A stretch of DNA of 32,000 bases, from NCBI GenBank assembly GCA_016700375.1, contig CP065016.1, positions 150,001 through 182,000 on the forward strand. Direction: 5' to 3'. A program made the translations under genes and the position numbers. Positions 4,421 through 29,226 of this stretch are shown here, one piece after another (position 1 is the stretch's first letter; each line of letters opens with the position of its first letter). The DNA is from Candidatus Saccharimonadota bacterium (GTDB lineage: Bacteria > Patescibacteriota > Saccharimonadia > Saccharimonadales > UBA4665). The notes below the pieces were generated by a model. That model was not told the origin of the DNA. It did no database searches and was given only the letters and a program-made list of their open reading frames with translations.

Positions 4421-4822
4421 ATGAGTACAACTACTACTGATCCTATCTCCGACATGCTAACTCGAATTCGCAACGCGATTGCAGTTGGAAAGACCGAAGT
4501 TAGCTTGCCACATAGCAAAATCAAAGAAAATGTCGCCATTAGCCTGCGCAATAACGGCTTCTTACATGATGTTAGCACCGAGGACCTCACCGTTGGTAAG
4601 CGTTTGCACATTACCATCAACCTAGAAGGTGAAAACGCTAAAATTACTGAGATTAAGCGTCTTAGCAAGCCGGGTCGTCGTTCTTACACGAACGCCCGCG
4701 AAGTGCCTCAGGTAAAACGCGGTCGCGGCGTGCTCATCATTTCGACTTCAAAAGGTCTTATGACCGGCGAAGAGGCCAAGCAACAAGGAGTTGGCGGAGA
4801 ACTAATCTGCCAGGTTTATTAG
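4421..4822 (+). CDS. rpsH: 30S ribosomal protein S8
   Basis: DPISDMLTRIRNA motif, at the expected operon position. Confidence 0.96.
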   Translation: MSTTTTDPISDMLTRIRNAIAVGKTEVSLPHSKIKENVAISLRNNGFLHDVSTEDLTVGKRLHITINLEGENAKITEIKRLSKPGRRSYTNAREVPQVKRGRGVLIISTSKGLMTGEEAKQQGVGGELICQVY

Positions 4823-4839
4823 TCTAAGAAAGGAAAGAA

Positions 4840-5379
4840 ATGAGTCGAGTAGGAAAACTACCCATCCAAGTTCCAAGCGGTGTGACAATCACTGTCGACT
4901 CAGACGCTGTGAAGGTGTCTGGGGCCAAAGGGAATCTTGAAACACCTCAGTTAGAGGGAATTACTGTTAGTGTTGAGGACGGCGTCCTCACTGTATCCCG
5001 TGCAAATGATATGCCGAAGATTCGCGCTGCTCATGGCCTTATGCGCGCACTCATAAACAATATGGTGCAAGGTGTTAGCCAGGGCTTTAGCAAAAAGTTA
5101 GAGTTAAACGGTGTTGGCTACCGTGTTGCCATGCAAGGCACCGACCTCAAACTCAATATTGGTTTTAGCCACGATGTTATATACAAAGTGCCGAGCGGCG
5201 TGCAAGTAGCCGTCGAACAAAACACCATGACGGTGAGCGGCATAAACAAACAGCAAGTTGGCCAGGTAGCCGCTGAAATCCGCGCTCTTAAGAAGCCAGA
5301 GCCGTACAAGGGCAAAGGTATAAAGTACGAAGGCGAACGTATTTTGCGCAAGTCGGGTAAGTCAGGAAAGGACAAGTAA
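4840..5379 (+). CDS. rplF: 50S ribosomal protein L6
   Basis: MSRVGKLPIQVPSGV.. is a canonical L6 start. The gap after rpsH is short (17 nt) and has an AAGGAAAG SD. Confidence 0.96.
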   Translation: MSRVGKLPIQVPSGVTITVDSDAVKVSGAKGNLETPQLEGITVSVEDGVLTVSRANDMPKIRAAHGLMRALINNMVQGVSQGFSKKLELNGVGYRVAMQGTDLKLNIGFSHDVIYKVPSGVQVAVEQNTMTVSGINKQQVGQVAAEIRALKKPEPYKGKGIKYEGERILRKSGKSGKDK

Positions 5380-5515
5380 TGAAAAAATTATCCATTACCC
5401 TGTCACCTGTCACCTTGCATTACCCTGTCACCTGTCACAATGGTTACATGTCACACGGTACATCAATGTTACATGTCACACGTGACACGCTAATCTGCGA
5501 CGAAAGGAGCTCCCT
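5380..5515 (+). repeat. intercistronic hairpin module, TGTCAC-rich family copy C (rplF-rplR)
   Basis: CCTGTCACCTGTCAC occurs twice (5399-5413 and 5424-5438) and ACATGTCACAC twice. Tail GCGACGAAAGGAGC at 5497-5510. Confidence 0.8.
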
Positions 5516-5869
5516 ATGAGCCTATCTACCAAACTTGTCCAGCGTGCCCAGCGCAAAAATCGCATACGTGCGACAGTGATTGGCACCACCGAACGGCCTC
5601 GACTGAGCATCCACATTAGCAATGCAAATGTAAGCGCACAAGTTATTGATGACAGCAAACACCACACGCTTGCTTCAGTGACTACCGCAAACAACAAGGC
5701 CGCCAAAGGCACCCTGACCGAAAAAGCTGTATGGGTTGGCAATGAAATTGCTCTTGCGGCTAAAAAGGCAAATATATCCCAAGTAGTATTTGACAGGAGC
5801 GGCAAGCAGTACCATGGCCGCGTAAAAGCCCTCGCCGATGCGGCACGGGAGAAAGGATTGGAGTTCTAA
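5516..5869 (+). CDS. rplR: 50S ribosomal protein L18
   Basis: RKNRIR..ERPRLSIHISNANVSAQVIDD matches the L18 pattern. Confidence 0.95.
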   Translation: MSLSTKLVQRAQRKNRIRATVIGTTERPRLSIHISNANVSAQVIDDSKHHTLASVTTANNKAAKGTLTEKAVWVGNEIALAAKKANISQVVFDRSGKQYHGRVKALADAAREKGLEF

Positions 5870-5991
5870 ATGAAATACTTCGTATTTTCTGAGGGCAAAG
5901 GGCAAAGGGCAAAGGGCAAAGTTAGCTCTAATGAACTCAGCCCTCAGCCCTCAGCCCTCAGCCCTGTTCTGACCGAAGGGAGGAACGCATA
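5870..5991 (+). repeat. intercistronic heptad-repeat hairpin (rplR-rpsE)
   Basis: GGGCAAA x4 at 5893-5920 face TCAGCCC x4 at 5937-5964. GGGC pairs with GCCC and one A-U pair forms per unit, leaving 2 mismatches at a fixed phase. Tail CCGAAGGGAGGAACG at 5973-5987. Confidence 0.85.
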
Positions 5992-6777
5992 ATGGCCGAA
6001 GAAGCAATACAACAAGCCGCAGTCGAACAAGCCGCGCAGGCAGGTCCACAATCTGCTCCACACCGTGGAGGCCAAGGGAACCGCGGCGGCCGTCGTGATG
6101 GTGGCCGACCGGCACGTAGCCGCAGCGAAGCACCCGAAGAAAAACAATTCGATGAACGCGTTGTGCACATTGACCGTGTTGCCCGCGTTGTGAAGGGTGG
6201 ACGTCGCTTTCGTTTCCGAGCCCTCGTCGTTGTGGGTGACCGCAAAGGCAAGGTAGGTATTGGAAGCGCGAAGGGCGCAGATGTAACAGCTGCCGTGAGT
6301 AAGGCGACTGAAGTTGCTAAAAAGCACTTTACGCCAGTTGTGCTATATAAGGGAACCATTCCACATGAAGTCAATGGTAAGGTTGCCGGCGCGCGTATTT
6401 TAATTATGCCAGCTGCACCGGGTACCGGGCTTATTGCCGGTGGTGTTGTTCGCACCGTTCTTGAAGTTGCCGGTGTGAGCAATGCGCTTAGTAAATCACT
6501 TGGCAGTAGTAACAAAACGAACATTGCCTACGCTACCATTGCCGCTCTTGAAAGCCTTGAGCCAAGCAAGAACTGGGTAACTACAAAACACAAGAGTCAA
6601 GAGTCAAGAGTCAAGAGTCAAGACAAAAAAACTCAGATTACAGCTGTCATTCCGAGCAAAGCCGAGGAATCCCCGCAAAAAGATTCCCAGGTGAAAACTG
6701 CCCCTGTTAAAAAGACATCCGAGGTAAAAAAGGCAGTGTCGGCTAAAAAGCCTGCTGCGAAAAAGGAATCAAAATGA
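5992..6777 (+). CDS. rpsE: 30S ribosomal protein S5 with a long C-terminal extension
   Basis: The S5 core is present (ERVVHIDRVARVVKGGRRFRF, ...GTGLIAGG..). At 261 aa it is far longer than the usual ~165-220 aa. The ~80-aa K/S/E-rich tail is partly encoded by GAGTCAA heptads. Confidence 0.95.
   Translation: MAEEAIQQAAVEQAAQAGPQSAPHRGGQGNRGGRRDGGRPARSRSEAPEEKQFDERVVHIDRVARVVKGGRRFRFRALVVVGDRKGKVGIGSAKGADVTAAVSKATEVAKKHFTPVVLYKGTIPHEVNGKVAGARILIMPAAPGTGLIAGGVVRTVLEVAGVSNALSKSLGSSNKTNIAYATIAALESLEPSKNWVTTKHKSQESRVKSQDKKTQITAVIPSKAEESPQKDSQVKTAPVKKTSEVKKAVSAKKPAAKKESK
6594..6621 (+). repeat. GAGTCAA x4 heptad array inside the rpsE 3' coding extension
   Basis: Four perfect tandem 7-mers encoding ..SQESRVKSQD... 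They are complementary at 6 of 7 positions per unit to the (A)TGACTC units at 6834-6861. Confidence 0.85.
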
Positions 6778-6883
6778 GACAAGAGACAAGAGACAAGAGA
6801 CAAGAATTAGTTATCAGTCGCAAAGCGACTGTCATGACTCATGACTCATACTTCATGACTCAGCGACTAAAAGGAGCCCTATA
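6776..6883 (+). repeat. intercistronic heptad-repeat hairpin (rpsE-rplO)
   Basis: GAGACAA x4 at 6776-6803 (overlapping the rpsE stop) face TCATGAC-type x4 at 6832-6859. Inner hairpin CAGTCGC-AAA-GCGACTG at 6815-6831. Tail GCGACTAAAAGGAGC at 6863-6877. Confidence 0.8.
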
Positions 6884-7351
6884 ATGAAATATCATGAACT
6901 TACTTCGACGCCGAAAAAATCAGGCAAGCGTGTTGGTCGCGGTATTGCAGCTGGCCAGGGTAAAACGGCTGGTCGTGGTACCAAAGGACAAGGTGCACGT
7001 ACCGGTTCCAGCAAGAAGCCGGGCTTCGAAGGTGGCCAAAACCCACTTATGCAGCGTTTGCCAAAACTACGGGGCTTCCGTAGCTTTCGAGTAAAGGCAG
7101 AAAACGTATATACTGAACAGCTCGATACGCTCGGCTCTAAGGTAGACAACAAAGTTCTCGCTGCTTCTGGGCTTGTCAGCAGCGAATATGTTCGCGTCAA
7201 GCTACTTTTCCGAGGTGAAGTCAGCAAGAAAGTTGATGTACAGCTTCAAGCAGCTAGCCTCAATGCTATGGAAGCGTTACAAAAAGCGGGGGGTAGCTTT
7301 ACACCCGTTCCAAGACGCATGCGTCCTGCTAAAAAAGAAGCAGAGAAATAG
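6884..7351 (+). CDS. rplO: 50S ribosomal protein L15
   Basis: KRVGRGIAAGQGKTAGRGTKGQ matches L15. It follows rpsE directly, with no L30 gene between them. Confidence 0.95.
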   Translation: MKYHELTSTPKKSGKRVGRGIAAGQGKTAGRGTKGQGARTGSSKKPGFEGGQNPLMQRLPKLRGFRSFRVKAENVYTEQLDTLGSKVDNKVLAASGLVSSEYVRVKLLFRGEVSKKVDVQLQAASLNAMEALQKAGGSFTPVPRRMRPAKKEAEK

Positions 7352-14131: not shown

Positions 14132-14821
14132 ATGCGTAAACAGCAGCAAATCTGGGCAGCAGAGCATGCAACTTCGGCCTCGTTGACGAAAATGGCTGGC
14201 GAAGAGCCCGCGAGTGGCGTCGTGGCTTTTGTGCAGTGGCTGAAGGAGTATGCCGCAAAGCCTGGGCATGCTGTAGACATCGGTAGTGGCAAAGGGAGAA
14301 ATGCAATTTATCTTGCGCAGCAGGGGTATGTTGTTGATGCGCTGGAATACATCGCAATTGCTCGGCAGCACACCAAAACACTGGCGAAAGCAAAGGGCCT
14401 CGAAACGAAAGTGCACAGTAAGGATGTAGAAATTGACGGAAGGTGGCCCTATGAAGACAATGTGTTTGATGTGGCCATTGACTCATTTGCATCTATTGAT
14501 GTCGAAACATTGGAAGGTCGTAAACATTGCCGTGACGAAATGTACCGCACCCTGAAACACGGAGGCTATGCACTTGTTACCGTGTGTTCGGTGGATGATG
14601 AATGGGAGCGCGAGCTACTGGCAAACCATCCTGGTCCAGAACCAAACAGCACTATTTGGCCGTCTAACGGGAAGTTTCAGAAAGATTATAGTGAAGAAGA
14701 GCTGCGGGAGTTTTATGAATTGTTTACCGTTCATGAACTAAAGACTATTCAGAAGCCAGCACACAAGCTCGGCCGAAATGGTACGGCTACTAATTTCTGG
14801 CTTGTCATACAGAAAAAATAG
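14132..14821 (+). CDS. class I SAM-dependent methyltransferase
   Basis: Motif I VDIGSGKGRNAIYLAQQGYVVDALE with an acidic post-I residue. TGcTATACT at 14117-14125 lies 6 nt before the ATG. Confidence 0.75.
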   Translation: MRKQQQIWAAEHATSASLTKMAGEEPASGVVAFVQWLKEYAAKPGHAVDIGSGKGRNAIYLAQQGYVVDALEYIAIARQHTKTLAKAKGLETKVHSKDVEIDGRWPYEDNVFDVAIDSFASIDVETLEGRKHCRDEMYRTLKHGGYALVTVCSVDDEWERELLANHPGPEPNSTIWPSNGKFQKDYSEEELREFYELFTVHELKTIQKPAHKLGRNGTATNFWLVIQKK

Positions 14822-14857
14822 TTGCAATGTATGTTTTGTTGTAGTACTATAACCGTT

Positions 14858-14926
14858 ATGAAAACAGTACAAACCAATTTGTATTGGTATACCGACACTT
14901 CTGTGGCGGTCTGTTCTGTGCGCTGA
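14858..14926 (+). CDS. candidate leaderless leader peptide MKTVQTNLYWYTDTSVAVCSVR
   Basis: ATG lies 7 nt after the -10. The ORF has 22 codons, TAT-TGG-TAT at 14882-14890 and a stop at 14924-14926. The ORF runs through the 5' arm of the antiterminator. Confidence 0.3.
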   Translation: MKTVQTNLYWYTDTSVAVCSVR

Positions 14927-14948
14927 AACACATTTGAACCCATAAAGT

Positions 14949-14972
14949 AGACCGCCACCATGGCGGTTTTTT
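14949..14972 (+). terminator. intrinsic terminator (attenuator) upstream of the 57-aa ORF
   Basis: ACCGCCA-CCA-TGGCGGT followed by TTTTT. Confidence 0.65.
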
Positions 14973-14992
14973 AGTAATGAAAAGGGAGAAAT

Positions 14993-15166
14993 ATGAACGT
15001 TGATGAAATACTAAGACCATCTGGCATCGGAACAGAAACGGTGTTACCAAACCGCAGACCCAACCTGAGTGAAGATCAAATTCGAAAAGCTGCTCAGCTA
15101 GCTGGGCTAGAAGGTTTTGGTGACCCACCCTCAGCAACGCCGCATAGGAACGAGGAAACACAATGA
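14993..15166 (+). CDS. small hypothetical protein (57 aa)
   Basis: Not in the track because it is under 60 aa. SD AAGGGAG lies 7 nt upstream of ATG 14993. Its stop overlaps the next ATG (ATGA at 15163-15166), which suggests translational coupling. Confidence 0.5.
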   Translation: MNVDEILRPSGIGTETVLPNRRPNLSEDQIRKAAQLAGLEGFGDPPSATPHRNEETQ

Positions 15167-15834
15167 TTGGGATTGTTGGCTCGGCCGGTGATTTAGGAAG
15201 TCAACTACTAAATCGGATGCAAGAGCGCGGAATAGAGGTAGCTACTTTTGACGCCTGGGGCAGCAACAATAGCCATAAATCTGTCGGTGATGTTGTTGCA
15301 GATTCGGAAATAACTCACTGGTGTGCGCCGCTTGATGCACTAAATTTGCTTGGTAGCCCTGCCGAGAGGCGGCAATTAGTACTTCATAGCAGTGTCATGC
15401 ACCTCTCATATGATGCGCTGGTAAATCATGGTCAAAGGCTACCTAAGGTAGGCTTCAACATCGTTCATTGTTTGATGAACAGACATGACACGGTAAATGC
15501 TGCAACGGGACACGTTTCGGAAGCAGTCAAGACCCACCTTGGTCAGATTGGGCTAAATGTTCGGCCAAAAACTATTCACGAACACGATAAGAATGCGGCA
15601 CTTACGCAGGGGGCTGCAATGGTTTTATGTGAATTATTGCTTGGCGAGCTACAGGGTGTCCATGAAGAAGATCTGACACCATCTGGCGAGTGGCTATTAA
15701 AGGTTCTCGAAGAACGTGCTATGAACTGGACCGATGCCACCAAAAATTCAGTGCTCCGAAACCCTGAGCTATCTCAACTATTTGCATCTAAAAGGATAGA
15801 AGAAATTTTTCAAAGATATCTAAACGTTGCGTGA
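15163..15834 (+). CDS. NAD(P)-binding Rossmann protein, prephenate-dehydrogenase (TyrA)-like
   Basis: N-terminal IGIVGSAGDLGS dinucleotide-binding loop. EHDKNAALTQGAAMV resembles the E. coli TyrA segment EHDQNMAFIQALRHF. At 223 aa it is shorter than typical TyrA. Confidence 0.4.
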   Translation: MIGIVGSAGDLGSQLLNRMQERGIEVATFDAWGSNNSHKSVGDVVADSEITHWCAPLDALNLLGSPAERRQLVLHSSVMHLSYDALVNHGQRLPKVGFNIVHCLMNRHDTVNAATGHVSEAVKTHLGQIGLNVRPKTIHEHDKNAALTQGAAMVLCELLLGELQGVHEEDLTPSGEWLLKVLEERAMNWTDATKNSVLRNPELSQLFASKRIEEIFQRYLNVA

Positions 15835-15848
15835 GGTATACTACTACT

Positions 15849-16952
15849 ATGACGAAACAAGTAATATTAACTGGCCTACGGGCAAATAACGACCTGCACA
15901 TTGGCAATTATTTTGGCGCACTGCTGCCGCTAATAGATATGGCAAAAACGCGGTCAGACGAGTACGATGTGCATTTGTTTGTGCCTGACCTGCACAGTTT
16001 TACAACCCCCATAGACTATAGCCAGCTGCAAGACCAGATTATGCACAATCTTCGCCTGTATGCAGCTGCCGGTTTGCCCCTGGACAACCCAAGCGTGCGC
16101 ATTTACCGCCAAAGTTTCGTTCCGGCTCACTCTGAGCTAACTGTCATCCTCAACTCATTCACAGGAATGGGTCAGATGGAGCGCATGACACAGTTTAAGG
16201 ATAAATCTGGCAAACTCGGGGTAGATTCTATTAGCGTGGGGCTGTTTGACTACCCAGTGCTAATGGCAGCAGATATCTTACTTTACGGCGCAAAGTATGT
16301 TCCTGTGGGTGATGACCAAAGCCAGCACCTTGAGTTTGCAAGGGACATTGCCGAGCGGATGAACAGTAAGTTTGCGCGAGAACTGTTTACGGTGCCGGAG
16401 CCAGTTACTAAACAGCACGAGTTTTTTCATGGCATTCATAGCTTTAGCGCAGAAGGCGGCAAAGACCAGCCTTCGCCAAGGCTACGGCCGGCAGGCCAGG
16501 GGCTGCGCATAAAGGACTTGCAAGACCCAACCAAAAAGATGAGCAAGAGTGACGAAAGTGGCAAGGGCATCATTTTCCTCGGTGACTCACCGGAAGCGGC
16601 TGCGAAAAAGATTCATAGCGCTGCTACTGATAGTTTTGGGCGCATAGACGTAGATAATCAAGACCAGCCGGGCATTGTAAACCTCATGCAAATCTTAGCA
16701 CTTGCGACCGGCAACTCGTATGAAGAGATAAAGACTAACTACACTGGTCAAACCCAGTATGGCCCCCTCAAAATCGACGCTGCAGTGGCGATTTCTGAGT
16801 TTCTCCATGCATTTCAGGACCGACTTGCTGCAGTAGATGAAACTAAGCTGACAGAGAAACTTCGTGCAGATGAAGTTAAAATGAACGAAATTGCCAACCA
16901 AACACTGCTGCGTGTCCAAAAAGCCGTCGGCCTCCGTCCTGTGTCATCCTGA
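15849..16952 (+). CDS. trpS: tryptophan--tRNA ligase
   Basis: HIGH-type motif NDLHIGNYFGA and KMSKS (KKMSKSDE). The track ORF starts at GTG 15831, but ATG 15849 (MTKQVILTG) is more likely. An insertion precedes KMSKS. Confidence 0.9.
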   Translation: MTKQVILTGLRANNDLHIGNYFGALLPLIDMAKTRSDEYDVHLFVPDLHSFTTPIDYSQLQDQIMHNLRLYAAAGLPLDNPSVRIYRQSFVPAHSELTVILNSFTGMGQMERMTQFKDKSGKLGVDSISVGLFDYPVLMAADILLYGAKYVPVGDDQSQHLEFARDIAERMNSKFARELFTVPEPVTKQHEFFHGIHSFSAEGGKDQPSPRLRPAGQGLRIKDLQDPTKKMSKSDESGKGIIFLGDSPEAAAKKIHSAATDSFGRIDVDNQDQPGIVNLMQILALATGNSYEEIKTNYTGQTQYGPLKIDAAVAISEFLHAFQDRLAAVDETKLTEKLRADEVKMNEIANQTLLRVQKAVGLRPVSS

Positions 16953-16963
16953 ACTTGTTTCAG
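16949..16963. repeat. left 15-bp inverted repeat flanking the GIY-YIG ORF
   Basis: CTGAACTTGTTTCAG. It contains the trpS stop TGA (16950-16952) and is the perfect reverse complement of 17271-17285. Confidence 0.85.
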
Positions 16964-16975
16964 GATCCAAACATT

Positions 16976-17290
16976 ATGAAAGAATCATATGTGTACATAC
17001 TAGCCTCAAAAGCTCGTGGAACTTTGTATATCGGTGTTACCAATAGCTTTGAGCGAAGGTATTTTGAACATTCGATGGGCCTAAATGGCGAAAGCTTTAC
17101 TCAGAAATATAACGTTAAACGGCTCGTATATTTTGAAAAGTGCGATTCTATAGAACAGGCTATAGTTAGAGAAAAACAGCTTAAGAATTGGCATAGACAG
17201 TGGAAAATTAATCTCATTGAGTCTGTAAACCCTGGCTGGGATAATCTGAGTATTCGTTATGGTATAGATGCTGAAACAAGTTCAGCATGA
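16976..17290 (+). CDS. GIY-YIG nuclease superfamily protein (YhbQ/UPF0213-like)
   Basis: YVYILASKARGTLYIGVTNSFERRYFEH.. is a GIY-YIG motif. The alternative TTG start at 16955 is the one used by the track. The ORF looks AT-richer than its neighbours by eye. Confidence 0.75.
   Translation: MKESYVYILASKARGTLYIGVTNSFERRYFEHSMGLNGESFTQKYNVKRLVYFEKCDSIEQAIVREKQLKNWHRQWKINLIESVNPGWDNLSIRYGIDAETSSA
17271..17285. repeat. right 15-bp inverted repeat flanking the GIY-YIG ORF
   Basis: CTGAAACAAGTTCAG, lying inside the last codons of the ORF. Confidence 0.85.
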
Positions 17291-17321: not shown

Positions 17322-18230
17322 ATGGCAAATCTTGAAGTGAGTCGGGCGGAGCGGTTAGACCAACGGGTAGTGGCTATGTTGCCACAGCTTAGTCGTGCCT
17401 ATGCTGCAAAACTCATTGAAACGAAACGCGTCTCTGTAAATGGTCAATCCCAGGTGAAACCAGGCTACAAGCTGCGGCCAGATGACGAGGTCACTATTGA
17501 ATACGATGAAGCGGAAGAAGAGCACATTCCCGACATAGAACTCGAGGTCTTGTACGAAGACAATGACTGCGTGGTTATATACAAGCCCGTTGGGATACTT
17601 ACGCACAGCAAGGGGGCATATAACCCCGAAGCGACTGTTGCCACCTGGTTACGTTCTCGCCTGAAGCGTGAAAGCTCCGACCTTTCACGCGGGACGGCCG
17701 TGAAAGCTCCGACCTTTCACGGGGGAGAGCGGGCAGGGATTGTGCATAGGCTCGACAGGGCAACAAGTGGGGTTATGATATGCGCCAAGAACACAGAAGC
17801 ACTGAGCTGGCTGCAAAAACAGTTTGCGCAGCGTCGTACAAAAAAAACGTATATGGCTGTCGTGAAAGGGAGTATGAACCCAGAGGCAGCAATTATTGAT
17901 ATGCCCATAGAGCGAAACCCAAAGGCGCCAGCGACGTTTCGGGTAGGTGAGCAGGGAAAGCCGGCCAAAACAACCTATCGAACGCTTGTAAGTGGTAAAA
18001 CGCATAGTCTGGTGGAGTTAAAGCCGGAAACTGGCCGGACACATCAGCTTCGTGTTCATCTGGCACATCAGGGGCACCCTATTGTCGGCGATACATTTTA
18101 CGGTGGCCAGCCCGCCGACCGCTTGTATCTGCACGCGGCAGAGCTTGAGCTCACCATATTGGCAGGACATGAGCGGAAAGTGTTTCGCGCTGCCGTGCCA
18201 CCTGAGTTTCAGGAGTTTGCCAATACATGA
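17322..18230 (+). CDS. rluD: RluA-family 23S rRNA pseudouridine synthase (RluD-like)
   Basis: N-terminal S4 domain and the catalytic motif GIVHRLDRATSGVMICAKN. TGtTAGAAT at 17307-17315 lies 6 nt before the ATG. Confidence 0.85.
   Translation: MANLEVSRAERLDQRVVAMLPQLSRAYAAKLIETKRVSVNGQSQVKPGYKLRPDDEVTIEYDEAEEEHIPDIELEVLYEDNDCVVIYKPVGILTHSKGAYNPEATVATWLRSRLKRESSDLSRGTAVKAPTFHGGERAGIVHRLDRATSGVMICAKNTEALSWLQKQFAQRRTKKTYMAVVKGSMNPEAAIIDMPIERNPKAPATFRVGEQGKPAKTTYRTLVSGKTHSLVELKPETGRTHQLRVHLAHQGHPIVGDTFYGGQPADRLYLHAAELELTILAGHERKVFRAAVPPEFQEFANT
17667..17721 (+). repeat. two copies of a 23-nt hairpin-forming repeat inside rluD
   Basis: CGTGAAAGCTCCGACCTTTCACG occurs at 17667-17689 and 17699-17721. 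Each copy folds as CGTGAAAG/CTTTCACG. The period is 32 nt, so the two copies are read in different frames. Confidence 0.85.
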
Positions 18231-19828: not shown

Positions 19829-19905
19829 GCCACCTTAGCTCAGTTGGCCAGAGCGGCTGTTTTGTAAACAGCGGGTCGTGGGTTCGAATCCCTCAGGTGG
19901 CTCCA
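19829..19905 (+). tRNA. tRNA-Thr (anticodon UGU), CCA encoded
   Basis: Cloverleaf read by hand: acceptor GCCACCT/AGGTGGC, anticodon stem GCTGT/ACAGC, loop TTTGTAA. The T stem has one U-U mismatch. Confidence 0.85.
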
Positions 19906-19954: not shown

Positions 19955-20371
19955 ATGCGACCTAAAGAGAAGGGTGATATTGCAATTGCTAAAGCTATTA
20001 ATTATTTCATGAGTTGTAATTTTGAAGTGTGTTTACCTATAGGTGATAAACGAGATTACGATTTGGTTGTTGAAAAAGAAGGGAAGCTGCAAAGAGTACA
20101 GGTGAAGTATGCTGGACTTTACCCTGGACAAAAAAGTTGTAAGGTGGCTCTTCGTATCACGGGAGGTAATCAATCGTTTCATTATAGTAAAAAGTATAGA
20201 GACGACGCATTCGAACTTCTTTTTGTATACACTGCAAAAGAACAGGAATTTGTCGTAAACTGGTCAGAGATAACTGCTAGGAATGAGTTATCCATTGAAC
20301 ATAAAAAGTATAATAAGTACCTCATAAACTCGAGCAGGGTTAGTGAAGCGGTCAAACACGATAGACTGTAA
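19955..20371 (+). CDS. PD-(D/E)XK nuclease, resembles the intron-homing endonuclease family typified by I-Ssp6803I
   Basis: KGDIAIAKAINYF..CLPIGDKRDYDLVVEKEGKLQRVQVK gives the D..(E/Q)xK core. About 33% GC by hand count of the first 118 nt. The last 12 codons overlap the 5' half of tRNA-Tyr, and the stop TAA is in its anticodon loop. Confidence 0.55.
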   Translation: MRPKEKGDIAIAKAINYFMSCNFEVCLPIGDKRDYDLVVEKEGKLQRVQVKYAGLYPGQKSCKVALRITGGNQSFHYSKKYRDDAFELLFVYTAKEQEFVVNWSEITARNELSIEHKKYNKYLINSSRVSEAVKHDRL

Positions 20372-20419
20372 ATCTATTGGCTTATGCCTTCGTAGGTTCG
20401 AATCCTACACCCTGCACCA
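20334..20419 (+). tRNA. tRNA-Tyr (anticodon GUA), long variable arm, CCA encoded
   Basis: Acceptor GCAGGGT/ACCCTGC, D arm GTG-AAGCGGTCAAA-CAC, anticodon loop CTGTAAA, variable stem GGC-TTAT-GCC, T arm GTAGG-TTCGAAT-CCTAC. Confidence 0.9.
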
Positions 20420-21410: not shown

Positions 21411-21438
21411 AAAAAAGCGGCCATAAGGCCGTTTTTTT
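21411..21438. terminator. bidirectional intrinsic terminator between convergent rpmG and the GH15 gene
   Basis: AAAAAAGCGGCC-ATAA-GGCCGTTTTTTT, with A/T runs on both sides. Confidence 0.7.
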
Positions 21439-23371
21439 AGCCGTATACATCGAGCAGGGTATTGATGAGTTCGGCGTGGCTCCATACCAGGGGGAGAACA
21501 GATAGTGGTTCTCCGGTGGTTGGGTTTATCTGTTCACCGAGGGCGCCGCTTGGCAATGCTCTTTCTAGTGTCCACGCGACAATTTTTCTGGCTTCTTCGT
21601 CTCGGTCTGTCTGGAGATAATACTGCGCAATCCAAAGCGTTGTTACGAACCAGGGGTTACCCATGTGTGGTGGGTCTGATTGGAAGTATGCATCATGCTC
21701 GTAACGAGGGCTGCCCCCGACTGGCGCTGAAGCCAGCAATAATTTTTCTATACCAGCGTACGTTGCGCGAATAGACCCAGCGCCCATAATCCTTGCCGCA
21801 AACATCATTGCTCCGTAGGCATTTGAAACATCGAGCGTGTTATCAAACTTGAGTGAGCCATCTTCTTGGATCAAGAAGCCTTTTCGCAGGTAGCCGCGTT
21901 CAGGGTCAAGGAAAACGGCCGTGTTTTCGGCAATGCCAGCGGCTACTTTGCGCCAGCGGTCTGCATCGTCCGGGTACTCGAACAGCTCAGCAAGGTCTGC
22001 GGCGCAGGTGAGGGCACGATGAACGAGGGCCGTTGTGTAAGTATTTGTAAGGAACTTTTCTTCCCATAGGTCATAGCTTGCATGTGGCAACCCGGTCGCT
22101 TCATCTCGGAAATCTGCCATAAAATTCGCCATGGGTTGTATCATGGTGCCGTATAGGTTAGAAACAAACTCTTTGTCTTCGCTTTCGGCAAAATATTCTG
22201 AAAGCATAAAGATTATGATGGCAGTTTCGTCCTCTTGTATAGCTAGTTCGGCTCGTTTACCGTGCACAAGCGGGTGCCAGGTGCTGCCGATTGCTTTATC
22301 TGGTTGGTATTTATGCATCATGTAGCCCTCGGGGTCCATGATATCGCGGCAGAATTCAAAGAATTTTTTTGGTTCCTCGGTGTAACCCAGCCGTATTAAC
22401 GGCCACATTGCGTAAGCACCGTCGCGTGGCCAGACGTAGCTATAGTAGTCGCGGCCATAGTTATAAATGCTCGAGTCGCAGCTGGCAATAACACCACCTC
22501 GACGGTCGGTGTGCGCCTTGATGACCATAAGAGAATGTTTAATTGCTATTTGCTCAGCAGTGGGCATATCTTGAATCGTAGGGCGAGCTGTTTCAAGCCA
22601 CTGGTTCCAGTACGCTCGGGTGCTATTTACTCGCTCTTGCACACCCTGGTTTAAAATGCGCTCATGAATCTTCTCTCCACTAAACTGTGAGTCTGCTGCA
22701 GCGACCCAATAGTCGACACGTGTTTCACTGTGAGCCTCAAGCGTAAGCGGACAGGAAAGTACAGAGTCTACCCCACCATGCTCAACGGCATTCCCCGACA
22801 GCTCGCCGTCCTCAGCGTCTTTCCAGCTACCTTCTTTTCCTTCCACGCCGTAACTTCCAACACAGTATTGGTCAAACGGCGTACCGTCGTTACTTTGCGC
22901 ATAGATGATAAGGCTGCAACGACCCTTGTAGTCGAGAATGTAGGGTCCATCGGGTACATATAGCGCCGTGTCGCCGCGGCCGCCTCGGGATATTTCAAAT
23001 ACCTGATGCAAAAAAAGACGTATGACTCTCTTTTTGTCACTAACGTTTTTTATAGTTATTTGTCTGCAAAATGCATTAAATTCGCTATCTACGAAGTCAC
23101 TGGTGTGAAGTTGCACACCCAGCGTCTTATTGTTCATGTGGACATCACTCACAAGCGCTTTTTGTTCGACGAGTACGTCTGTAGCCCAGCTTGAGGCATC
23201 ATCTACCCAAGAAAAAGTATTGTCAACGAATACTCCTATTCGGTGTTGAAGACTGCGTGAGGTCGTCAGGTTATCGAGCCCAACATACGGATAGTAGAAG
23301 TCATGAACCAATCCTGATTCGTTCAGGCCAACGGTGAGTGCGCCATTGCCGAGTATAACGGGTCTACCCAT
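21437..23371 (-). CDS. glycoside hydrolase family 15 (glucoamylase/glucodextranase-like)
   Basis: 644 aa. It has the N-terminal beta-sandwich region typical of bacterial and archaeal GH15 and an (alpha/alpha)6 catalytic region (..YSYVWPRDGAYA.., ..WEEKF..). Confidence 0.8.
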   Translation of the reverse strand: MGRPVILGNGALTVGLNESGLVHDFYYPYVGLDNLTTSRSLQHRIGVFVDNTFSWVDDASSWATDVLVEQKALVSDVHMNNKTLGVQLHTSDFVDSEFNAFCRQITIKNVSDKKRVIRLFLHQVFEISRGGRGDTALYVPDGPYILDYKGRCSLIIYAQSNDGTPFDQYCVGSYGVEGKEGSWKDAEDGELSGNAVEHGGVDSVLSCPLTLEAHSETRVDYWVAAADSQFSGEKIHERILNQGVQERVNSTRAYWNQWLETARPTIQDMPTAEQIAIKHSLMVIKAHTDRRGGVIASCDSSIYNYGRDYYSYVWPRDGAYAMWPLIRLGYTEEPKKFFEFCRDIMDPEGYMMHKYQPDKAIGSTWHPLVHGKRAELAIQEDETAIIIFMLSEYFAESEDKEFVSNLYGTMIQPMANFMADFRDEATGLPHASYDLWEEKFLTNTYTTALVHRALTCAADLAELFEYPDDADRWRKVAAGIAENTAVFLDPERGYLRKGFLIQEDGSLKFDNTLDVSNAYGAMMFAARIMGAGSIRATYAGIEKLLLASAPVGGSPRYEHDAYFQSDPPHMGNPWFVTTLWIAQYYLQTDRDEEARKIVAWTLERALPSGALGEQINPTTGEPLSVLPLVWSHAELINTLLDVYG

Positions 23372-23494
23372 GTTTTACTCCATAGGAGTAAAACATGGGA
23401 GAAGTAAGGAGTAAGGAGCGAGGAGTAAGGAATGAAAATTCCTGATCCCTTACTACTTTATGCTTACTGCCAGGCACACACCACCACGGCGACA
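23372..23494 (-). repeat. intercistronic heptad-repeat hairpin plus an SD/AUG-sequestering hairpin (GH57-GH15)
   Basis: On the + strand, AGTAAGG x4 (third unit degenerate) at 23403-23430 face CCTTACT-type units at 23447-23469. The apical hairpin is GGAAT-GAAA-ATTCC. The 15-bp stem 23367-23399 (CCCATGTTTTACTCC-ATA-GGAGTAAAACATGGG) covers the GH15 SD and start codon. Confidence 0.8.
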
Positions 23495-29150: not shown

Positions 29151-29226
29151 AGGAGAGTAGCTCAGTTGGTAGAGCATCGGTCTCCAAAACCGAGGGTCGC
29201 AGGTTCGAGTCCTGTCTCTCCTGCCA
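29151..29226 (+). tRNA. tRNA-Trp (anticodon CCA), CCA encoded
   Basis: Acceptor AGGAGAG/CTCTCCT, anticodon stem TCGGT/ACCGA, loop CTCCAAA, T arm GCAGG-TTCGAGT-CCTGT, discriminator G. Confidence 0.92.

Follow-up and report, generated by a model that had tools for sequence, protein, structure and literature searches.

A candidate leader-peptide attenuator upstream of trpS in Saccharibacteria and the family of leaders related to it

How might a bacterium belonging to the candidate phyla radiation (CPR)/Patescibacteria adjust expression of its tryptophanyl-tRNA synthetase gene to the supply of aromatic amino acids? The question is raised by a stretch of 32,000 nucleotides (nt) from Candidatus Saccharimonadota bacterium (assembly GCA_016700375.1, contig CP065016.1, positions 150,001 to 182,000, forward strand), referred to below as the window. 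Its host is a Saccharimonadales bacterium (Saccharibacteria, CPR/Patescibacteria). Between a methyltransferase gene and an operon composed of a small open reading frame (orf57), a TyrA-like gene and trpS lies a leader of about 115-120 nt, within which the sequence reads as a translated open reading frame (ORF). We are fairly confident that this leader acts as a ribosome-mediated (leader-peptide) transcription attenuator controlling the orf57 / TyrA-like / trpS operon, and ribosome stalling at its Tyr-Trp-Tyr codons is most likely what turns the operon on. To our knowledge, gene regulation in Patescibacteria/CPR is almost unexplored.

Elements of the leader and the proposed switch

The leader comprises the following elements (positions are those of the window):

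14822-14827, plus strand: -35 box TTGCAA, read in sequence
14845-14850, plus strand: -10 box TACTAT, separated from the -35 box by a 17-nt spacer and ending 7 nt before the leader ATG
14858-14926, plus strand: leader ORF MKTVQTNLYWYTDTSVAVCSVR, 22 codons plus stop (ATG at 14858, stop at 14924-14926)
14882-14890, plus strand: control codons TAT-TGG-TAT (Tyr-Trp-Tyr), directly 5' of segment 1
14891-14898, plus strand: segment 1, ACCGACAC, 5' arm of the 1:2 (anti-antiterminator) hairpin
14903-14912, plus strand: segment 2, GTGGCGGTCT, alternative partner of segment 1 or segment 3
14949-14958, plus strand: segment 3, AGACCGCCAC, antiterminator 3' arm; its positions 14949-14957 double as the terminator 5' arm
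14961-14969, plus strand: segment 4, TGGCGGTTT, 3' arm of the terminator; the T6 tract occupies 14967-14972

Much of this had been proposed in an initial annotation of the same DNA, and it holds. The promoter, the ATG 7 nt past its -10 box and the 22-codon ORF with TAT-TGG-TAT are all in place, the last two also in the ORF list. Segment 2 is perfectly complementary to segment 3, and an inverted-repeat scan recovered the same pair as repeat I4. The terminator hairpin (14949-14957/14961-14969 plus T6) is likewise present and overlaps the antiterminator. In two respects the annotation has to be amended. It had seen no obvious 1:2 hairpin, but one exists: ACCGACAC (14891-14898) pairs across a UUCU loop with GUGGCGGU (14903-14910), at -7.7 kcal/mol and with one A x G mismatch. 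It had also counted a single Trp codon. One Trp codon is indeed what the leader holds, but the sensed unit appears to be a cassette of three aromatic codons, Tyr-Trp-Tyr here and Tyr-Trp-Phe in most relatives.

Since segment 3 overlaps the 5' arm of the terminator, antiterminator and terminator are mutually exclusive. In the window the 2:3 helix is computed at -21.9 kcal/mol and the 3:4 terminator helix at -12.3 kcal/mol. The proposed switch would work as follows. Transcription would start at the A of the leader AUG, or 1-2 bases from it, giving a leaderless mRNA, and a ribosome would translate the 22-codon leader while RNA polymerase makes segments 2 to 4. Were charged tRNA-Tyr or tRNA-Trp scarce, the ribosome would stall on 14882-14890 and its footprint would cover segment 1 (14891-14898). 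Segment 2 (14903-14912), freed in this way, would pair with segment 3 (14949-14958), so that the 5' arm of the terminator would be taken and polymerase would enter the operon. With a good supply the ribosome would reach the stop codon at 14924, sit between segments 2 and 3 and cover the 3' part of segment 2; segments 3 and 4 would then form the terminator and the T tract (14967-14972) would bring transcription to an end. If nothing were translated, the 1:2 hairpin would fold first and the terminator would form after it.

Inverted repeats of 10 nt are by themselves not rare (18 comparable pairs occur in the 32 kb), the fold of the window leader has a z-score of only -2.3, and a generic promoter/terminator scan listed the hairpin on the minus strand only. 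Taken alone, the window elements are weak; recurrence of their architecture in about 100 distinct loci lifts them above chance. The window itself holds a single copy of the leader according to covariance model R1 (see below), and neither pheS nor tyrS was found in it. Relatives do not share a further hairpin that lies over the first control codons in the window (14865-14886), and it was left out of the model.

Recurrence of the leader in Saccharibacteria

About 100 distinct homologous leaders were collected from Saccharibacteria genomes and metagenomes by three routes. The first led upstream of TyrA-like homologues in 20 species-representative genomes (Saccharibacteria/Patescibacteria metagenome-assembled genomes, MAGs), where 8 of the 20 loci carry the leader, seven of them recognized by eye and one more once the covariance model was applied. 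The second, a pattern made of segments 1 and 2, retrieved 89 metagenome stretches. The third, covariance model R1, added divergent or tandem copies. An 18-mer pattern scan of viral contigs gave 16 matches; these were chance hits in coding DNA and were discarded. Below, counts over 85 refer to distinct full-length elements derived from the pattern, and counts over 80 to distinct upstream regions. Alignment A3, obtained from model R1, contains 95 distinct leaders; the antiterminator played no part in its fitting.

In one tight clade of Saccharibacteria MAGs (loci L005-L013 and L020) the TyrA-like gene is kept, with trpS downstream in 9 of 10 loci, but there is no leader. Upstream of the gene these MAGs share a different conserved sequence, in which there is no terminator.

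In related genomes the frame of the peptide, the position of its stop codon and both alternative helices are kept upstream of trpS operons, the conservation that the initial annotation had named as a check. Helix counts were redone on A3 because the MAFFT alignment A2 misaligned some 3' arms of the terminator; the MAFFT alignment gives the same picture of the helices. A terminator hairpin with a T-rich tail is present in all 85 elements. On A3, 89% of its cells are paired, seven of its nine pairs have changed on both sides (41 such cells), and its covariation score is reached by none of 500 shuffles. The antiterminator 2:3 helix is paired in 88.5-89% of cells (88.5% on A3), compared with 36-58% when the register is slid. 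Five of its pairs have changed on both sides, among them G-C to A-U (in 9 sequences) and U-A to C-G, and again none of 500 shuffles of A3 reaches its covariation score.

Upstream regions aligned on the leader ATG yield the consensus TTGACA at -36 to -31, G at -17 and TAnAnT at -13 to -8 (n = 80). The -10-like hexamer ends exactly 7 nt before the ATG in 36 of the 80 regions and 7-9 nt before it in 63. A tetramer resembling a Shine-Dalgarno sequence precedes the ATG in only one of them, while downstream structural genes have strong Shine-Dalgarno sequences, such as AGGGAG at 14983-14988 in the window. The fixed spacing between -10 box and ATG, together with this near-absence of Shine-Dalgarno sequences, supports a leaderless leader peptide; judged by the promoter geometry alone, the leader ORF is probably translated from a leaderless mRNA.

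Of 85 elements, 84 have an open leader frame, while the two other frames are open in 36 and 52. Two frame classes can be told apart by the spacer that separates segment 1 from segment 2: it measures 4 nt in 43 elements and 5 nt in 41. As the spacer shifts the frame, the C-terminal peptides of the two classes are entirely different (VAVCSVRS versus RGGLFRVFA). In both classes, nevertheless, the stop codon keeps to a place 18-27 nt past the point where segment 2 begins (81 of 85 elements). The conserved feature, as far as the sequences tell, is the place where translation ends and not the peptide produced.

Occupation by a ribosome was imitated in silico by masking a 30-nt footprint, either with a control codon in the A site or with the ribosome at the stop codon. 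In the window, the antiterminator forms and the terminator does not when the mask lies at any of the three control codons (Tyr, Trp, Tyr), and the terminator forms when the mask is moved to the stop codon. Over the family, 62 of 85 elements fold into the antiterminator under a stall; with the ribosome at the stop codon, 76 show the terminator and 5 the antiterminator. The geometry first suggested for this locus, with segment 2 left free by a stall and the terminator allowed by a ribosome that has reached the stop codon, is thus borne out in silico for the window and for most of the family.

The family has no counterpart in Rfam and belongs to none of its curated leader families (Trp_leader, Phe_leader). 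At the gathering threshold there was no match in the window; at E <= 10, positions 14700-15250 gave no relevant match, T-box (RF00230) and Trp_leader (RF00513) included; and at E <= 0.1 there was no match among 10 relatives.

Control codons and the genes behind them

In the window the leader stands in this context:

14132-14821: gene of an S-adenosylmethionine (SAM)-dependent methyltransferase, directly upstream of the leader
14983-14988, plus strand: Shine-Dalgarno sequence AGGGAG of the first structural gene, read in sequence
14993-15166, plus strand: 57-amino-acid ORF, first gene of the putatively controlled operon; its stop overlaps the next start (ATGA)
15163-15834, plus strand: 223-amino-acid protein with the fold of prephenate/arogenate dehydrogenase (TyrA), from comparison of its predicted structure with the PDB
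15831-16952, plus strand: trpS (tryptophan--tRNA ligase), whose start codon shares bases with the TyrA-like stop codon

Neighbouring stop and start codons overlap throughout the operon. The 57-amino-acid ORF and the tryptophanyl-tRNA synthetase expected from the initial annotation are both present, the former in the ORF list and the latter by NCBIfam and Pfam profiles (TIGR00233, E = 1e-78; PF00579, E = 2e-53). The prephenate-dehydrogenase-like gene named there is a mixed case. Sequence profiles do not recognize its 223-amino-acid product: Pfam has no match, the best NCBIfam hit has E = 0.006 and a PDB sequence profile gave no classification. Its AlphaFold model (predicted local distance difference test score, pLDDT, 94) finds prephenate dehydrogenases as best matches in the PDB (5t95_B, E = 9e-12, template modelling score, TM, 0.75). 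Because profile searches failed where the fold comparison succeeded, the name TyrA-like is valid at the level of fold only.

Counterparts of the first ORF (14993-15166) follow most leaders (L001-L125) as poorly conserved ORFs of 45-130 amino acids with a strong Shine-Dalgarno sequence. Many of them share the loose motif (I/L)LR..G(I/V)......R(S/T)..EI, and they have no Pfam match.

Over its three positions the cassette is mostly Tyr-Trp-Phe (Tyr in 64, Trp in 76 and Phe in 64 of 85 elements). Trp occupies the middle position in 76 of 85, and TrpS is encoded downstream wherever the contig is long enough. Units with a Trp cassette often add 3-deoxy-D-arabino-heptulosonate 7-phosphate (DAHP) synthase of class I or II, a TyrA-like protein, prephenate dehydratase, a racemase or unclassified proteins. 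Five leaders have Phe-only cassettes (FFF, TFF, FLF, CFF, FFF). They precede a small ORF and AlaX, with PheS next where the contig reaches that far (L037, L038, L127). The search pattern does not match the leader of L127, which was arrived at by an independent route, through PheS. Among eight pheS loci collected separately, seven have no leader, and the Phe-type leader is tied to the AlaX-pheS arrangement only.

The correspondence between codons and genes can be followed within single loci. L019 has three tandem leaders: FFF before prephenate dehydratase, SWY before a TyrA-like gene and W-L-W before a unit ending in trpS. L108 also has three: FFYF; YYY, in front of an aromatic amino acid hydroxylase of the biopterin type; and AWW. 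In L096, YWF precedes a DAHP-synthase-like gene and SWW the trpS unit. In L015, FWF stands before prephenate dehydratase and YWY before DAHP synthase, a TyrA-like gene and trpS, and in L016 a SYYYH leader precedes a TyrA-like gene. Over the collection, WW or W-L-W cassettes head units containing trpS, Tyr-Trp-Phe/Tyr cassettes head DAHP synthases, and Tyr-only cassettes are found before the aromatic amino acid hydroxylase or a TyrA-like gene.

These data invite a wider reading, which we put forward tentatively and at somewhat less than even likelihood: a "codon-cassette" regulon, in which one leaderless scaffold would have been duplicated and re-targeted by swaps of three codons. Phe-, Tyr-, Trp- and all-aromatic switches would then govern synthetases together with an incomplete aromatic pathway or a salvage route, made up of DAHP synthase, prephenate dehydratase, a TyrA-like protein and Phe hydroxylase.

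Several further observations concern the genes behind the leaders. Environmental Saccharibacteria (L015, L019, L096, L108 and many metagenome loci) have DAHP synthases of classes I and II, prephenate dehydratase, TyrA-like genes and the biopterin-type hydroxylase under leaders. As CPR bacteria are usually described as lacking amino-acid biosynthesis, leader-controlled genes of the aromatic pathway are unexpected. Two conserved proteins, of clusters c6 and c26 (about 290 and 275 amino acids), are encoded between Trp-rich leaders and trpS (L109 1979-2839, L019 about 4900-5650, L080/L108). Pfam and NCBIfam recognize neither of them, and a PDB sequence comparison of c6 was also negative; both are candidates for Trp-related functions. 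In L069, a weak element (1092-1234, 33 bits) before trpS encodes Leu-Leu-Pro-Pro-Pro at the position of the cassette. It may be degenerate, or it may stall ribosomes in another way.

Around the operon, an ORF with a GIY-YIG nuclease domain (16955-17290) lies between trpS and rluD in the window and its closest relative, L002, only; missing from the remaining syntenic loci, it looks like a mobile insertion. L002 is an activated-sludge MAG whose TyrA-like protein shares about 96% identity with that of the window. In it (4669-7003) the TyrA-like gene and trpS are separated by an inserted ORF of 357 amino acids, and the junction retains a duplicate of 30 codons from the trpS 5' end. The window that holds the leader also holds genes of tRNA-Thr(TGT) (19829-19905), tRNA-Tyr(GTA) (20334-20419) and tRNA-Trp(CCA) (29151-29226). 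Within the rluD-like ORF there are two near-identical 12-bp hairpins, 32 nt apart (17666-17690 and 17698-17722; arms GCGTGAAAGCTC/GACCTTTCACGC and CCGTGAAAGCTC/GACCTTTCACGG), which may be a small repeated insertion in coding sequence. A perfect 15-bp hairpin, CCCATGTTTTACTCC / GGAGTAAAACATGGG, spans the start of a minus-strand GH15 glycosyl hydrolase ORF (21437-23371) at 23367-23399. As it includes the start codon and GGAG, translation initiation of this ORF could be occluded.

Alternative explanations and known systems

A number of points weigh against ribosome-mediated attenuation. Transcription start, coupling of transcription and translation, stalling and condition-dependent read-through are steps that we infer. 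The leader's promoter in the window matches the sigma-70 consensus at only 8 of 12 positions, and the generic scan therefore passed over it. For each amino acid there are just one or two control codons, where classical attenuators have tandem runs. The leaders are related sequences, and covariation counts overstate the number of independent events. The 1:2 helix is paired in 87% of cells with zero variation, but both its arms belonged to the search pattern and were fixed by it, so that covariation is uninformative here; divergent members have other 1:2 hairpins (TCACG/CGUGA, CGCCA/UGGCG, GCCAC/GUGGC), only weakly better than those of shuffled sequences. In the free RNA of the window the antiterminator fold (-34.4 kcal/mol) lies slightly below the 1:2 hairpin plus terminator (-33.1 kcal/mol). 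With the two states nearly isoenergetic, an "off" default depends on folding kinetics. The simulated stall still gives the terminator in 23 of 85 family members. Finally, the relation between codons and genes has exceptions: YFF, YYF and YSF leaders head operons ending in trpS, and the second copy in L069, a weak hit, is without an aromatic cassette.

Could a ligand or a protein control the antiterminator instead, in a riboswitch-like or TRAP/PyrR-like manner? In that case a factor would bind the RNA near segment 2 and the ORF would be irrelevant. Conservation of the string GTGRCGGTYTGTTCYGTG across two different reading frames speaks for selection on RNA rather than on peptide, and two alternative helices would suit any antitermination mechanism. 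Much of this conservation, however, was imposed by the search pattern, and leaders found with the covariance model keep only GGCGGT. Binding of a factor would also leave unexplained why the -10 box is fixed 7-9 nt before an ATG devoid of a Shine-Dalgarno sequence, why the frame is open in 84 of 85 elements with its stop position conserved in both frame classes, and why three codons switch with the identity of the downstream gene. No Rfam riboswitch matches the window or the 10 relatives. TRAP-regulated trp leaders carry an array of about 9-11 (G/U)AG triplets, 2-3 nt apart; the window leader, with no GAG and one UAG only, is without an array of this type. We regard control by such a factor as unlikely.

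An arrest peptide of the TnaC kind appears quite improbable. Here the nascent peptide W-F/Y-T-D would sense a free aromatic amino acid, stall the ribosome at the stop codon and favour the terminator. A W-[FY]-T-[DG] core is indeed frequent and recalls W12-F13...D16 of Escherichia coli TnaC, and a ribosome held at the stop codon does give the terminator in silico. TnaC-type peptides have a conserved W...D...P at fixed spacing to the stop codon, and act through Rho-dependent termination. In the Saccharibacteria leaders Thr is followed by Asp in 60 of 85 elements and by Gly in the remaining 25, no Pro is conserved ahead of the stop codon, and the terminator is intrinsic, not Rho-dependent. The C-terminal half of the peptide differs wholly between the frame classes, and divergent members carry unrelated residues after the cassette (TNYT, TTST, TRQK, YHLY). 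Moreover, Phe-only and Tyr-only cassettes precede genes for PheS, prephenate dehydratase and the hydroxylase.

It is very improbable that the hairpin is a plain terminator of the methyltransferase gene, combined with an undetected promoter or constitutive read-through, chance having produced the ORF and the second helix. The hairpin does lie 130 nt past the stop codon of the methyltransferase gene, with none other between, and inverted repeats of such size arise by chance. This explanation is contradicted by conservation: the unit as a whole, promoter included, stands behind a variety of upstream genes and is also repeated in tandem inside operons (L019, L108, L096), and the antiterminator covaries. 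Between the end of the T tract (14972) and the Shine-Dalgarno sequence (14983) there is moreover no space for a promoter. The terminator may also end methyltransferase transcripts reading in from upstream, which would be compatible with attenuation.

A T-box-like leader reading uncharged tRNA directly through a codon-like specifier is extremely improbable, for although trpS is T-box-controlled in many Firmicutes and the cassette codons match the downstream synthetase, neither RF00230 nor any other Rfam family matches the window or the 10 relatives, the leader of only about 115 nt has neither Stem I nor a T-box sequence, three adjacent and different "specifier" codons do not fit a T-box, and the features that point to translation (promoter-ATG geometry, open frame, stop position) would be left unexplained. 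All these explanations are judged less likely than ribosome-mediated attenuation; they leave unexplained the geometry of promoter and ATG, the conservation of frame and stop codon, the variable peptide and the relation of codons to downstream genes.

Attenuation of the trpL/pheL type is itself already known; it is the family of leaders that is new to it. With the enterobacterial trpL, pheL and hisL leaders (RF00513, Phe_leader) the Saccharibacteria leaders share a short ORF with cognate codons, 2:3 and 3:4 helices together with a putative 1:2 helix, and an intrinsic terminator before the structural genes; the position of the ribosome would pick the fold. They differ from them in host (CPR), in having no similarity of sequence or covariance model and in an apparently leaderless mRNA. 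Their cassette consists of three single aromatic codons abutting segment 1 instead of a tandem run, and segment 2 is contained in the ORF, whose stop codon follows 18-27 nt later.

Synthetase genes are under leader-peptide attenuation, with stalling at cognate codons, in E. coli pheM-pheST and Streptomyces coelicolor trpRS1. The Trp leaders before trpS and the Phe-only leaders before AlaX-pheS resemble these systems, but they form a separate sequence family in which one scaffold is reused with varied cassettes, and their operons mostly add genes of the aromatic pathway. Multivalent attenuation, with codons for several amino acids of one pathway, is known from the ilvGMEDA and thr leaders. In the Saccharibacteria leaders the inputs are Tyr, Trp and Phe, one codon each, placed before DAHP synthases (the common first step) as well as before trpS operons. 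Leaderless short-ORF attenuators occur in Actinobacteria, namely the trp/leu/ilv leaders of Corynebacterium and the mycobacterial polycysteine short ORFs. There too, no Shine-Dalgarno sequence is present and the coding sequence of the regulatory peptide begins at the transcript's 5' end, a feature which in the present family is suggested by promoter geometry only; phylum, sequence and amino acids are different. With the Firmicutes T-box before trpS/pheS the leaders have in common the physiological logic, the target genes and the switch between terminator and antiterminator. The T-box, in contrast, needs no translation and has Stem I and a T-box motif, both of which they lack.

A 2024 perspective on Patescibacteria biology mentions neither attenuation nor leader peptides, and a limited search of open full-text literature returned no relevant description of leader peptides in Saccharibacteria. 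The sequences give good support to a cis-regulatory family that is widespread in CPR bacteria and unusually clear in its modular design. Such a family would supply a clear cis-regulatory mechanism for the phylum, and would hint indirectly at coupled transcription and translation and at leaderless initiation. It would also offer a natural experiment, in which one RNA scaffold carries varied three-codon inputs matched to outputs, on how few codons suffice. It flags regulated aromatic-amino-acid genes in environmental Saccharibacteria, and the contrast between leader-bearing loci and the leaderless clade (L005-L013, L020) bears on the sensing of nutrient supply by epibionts. If the codon-cassette regulon proves true, synthetases and a partial aromatic pathway or salvage would be jointly governed in CPR bacteria.

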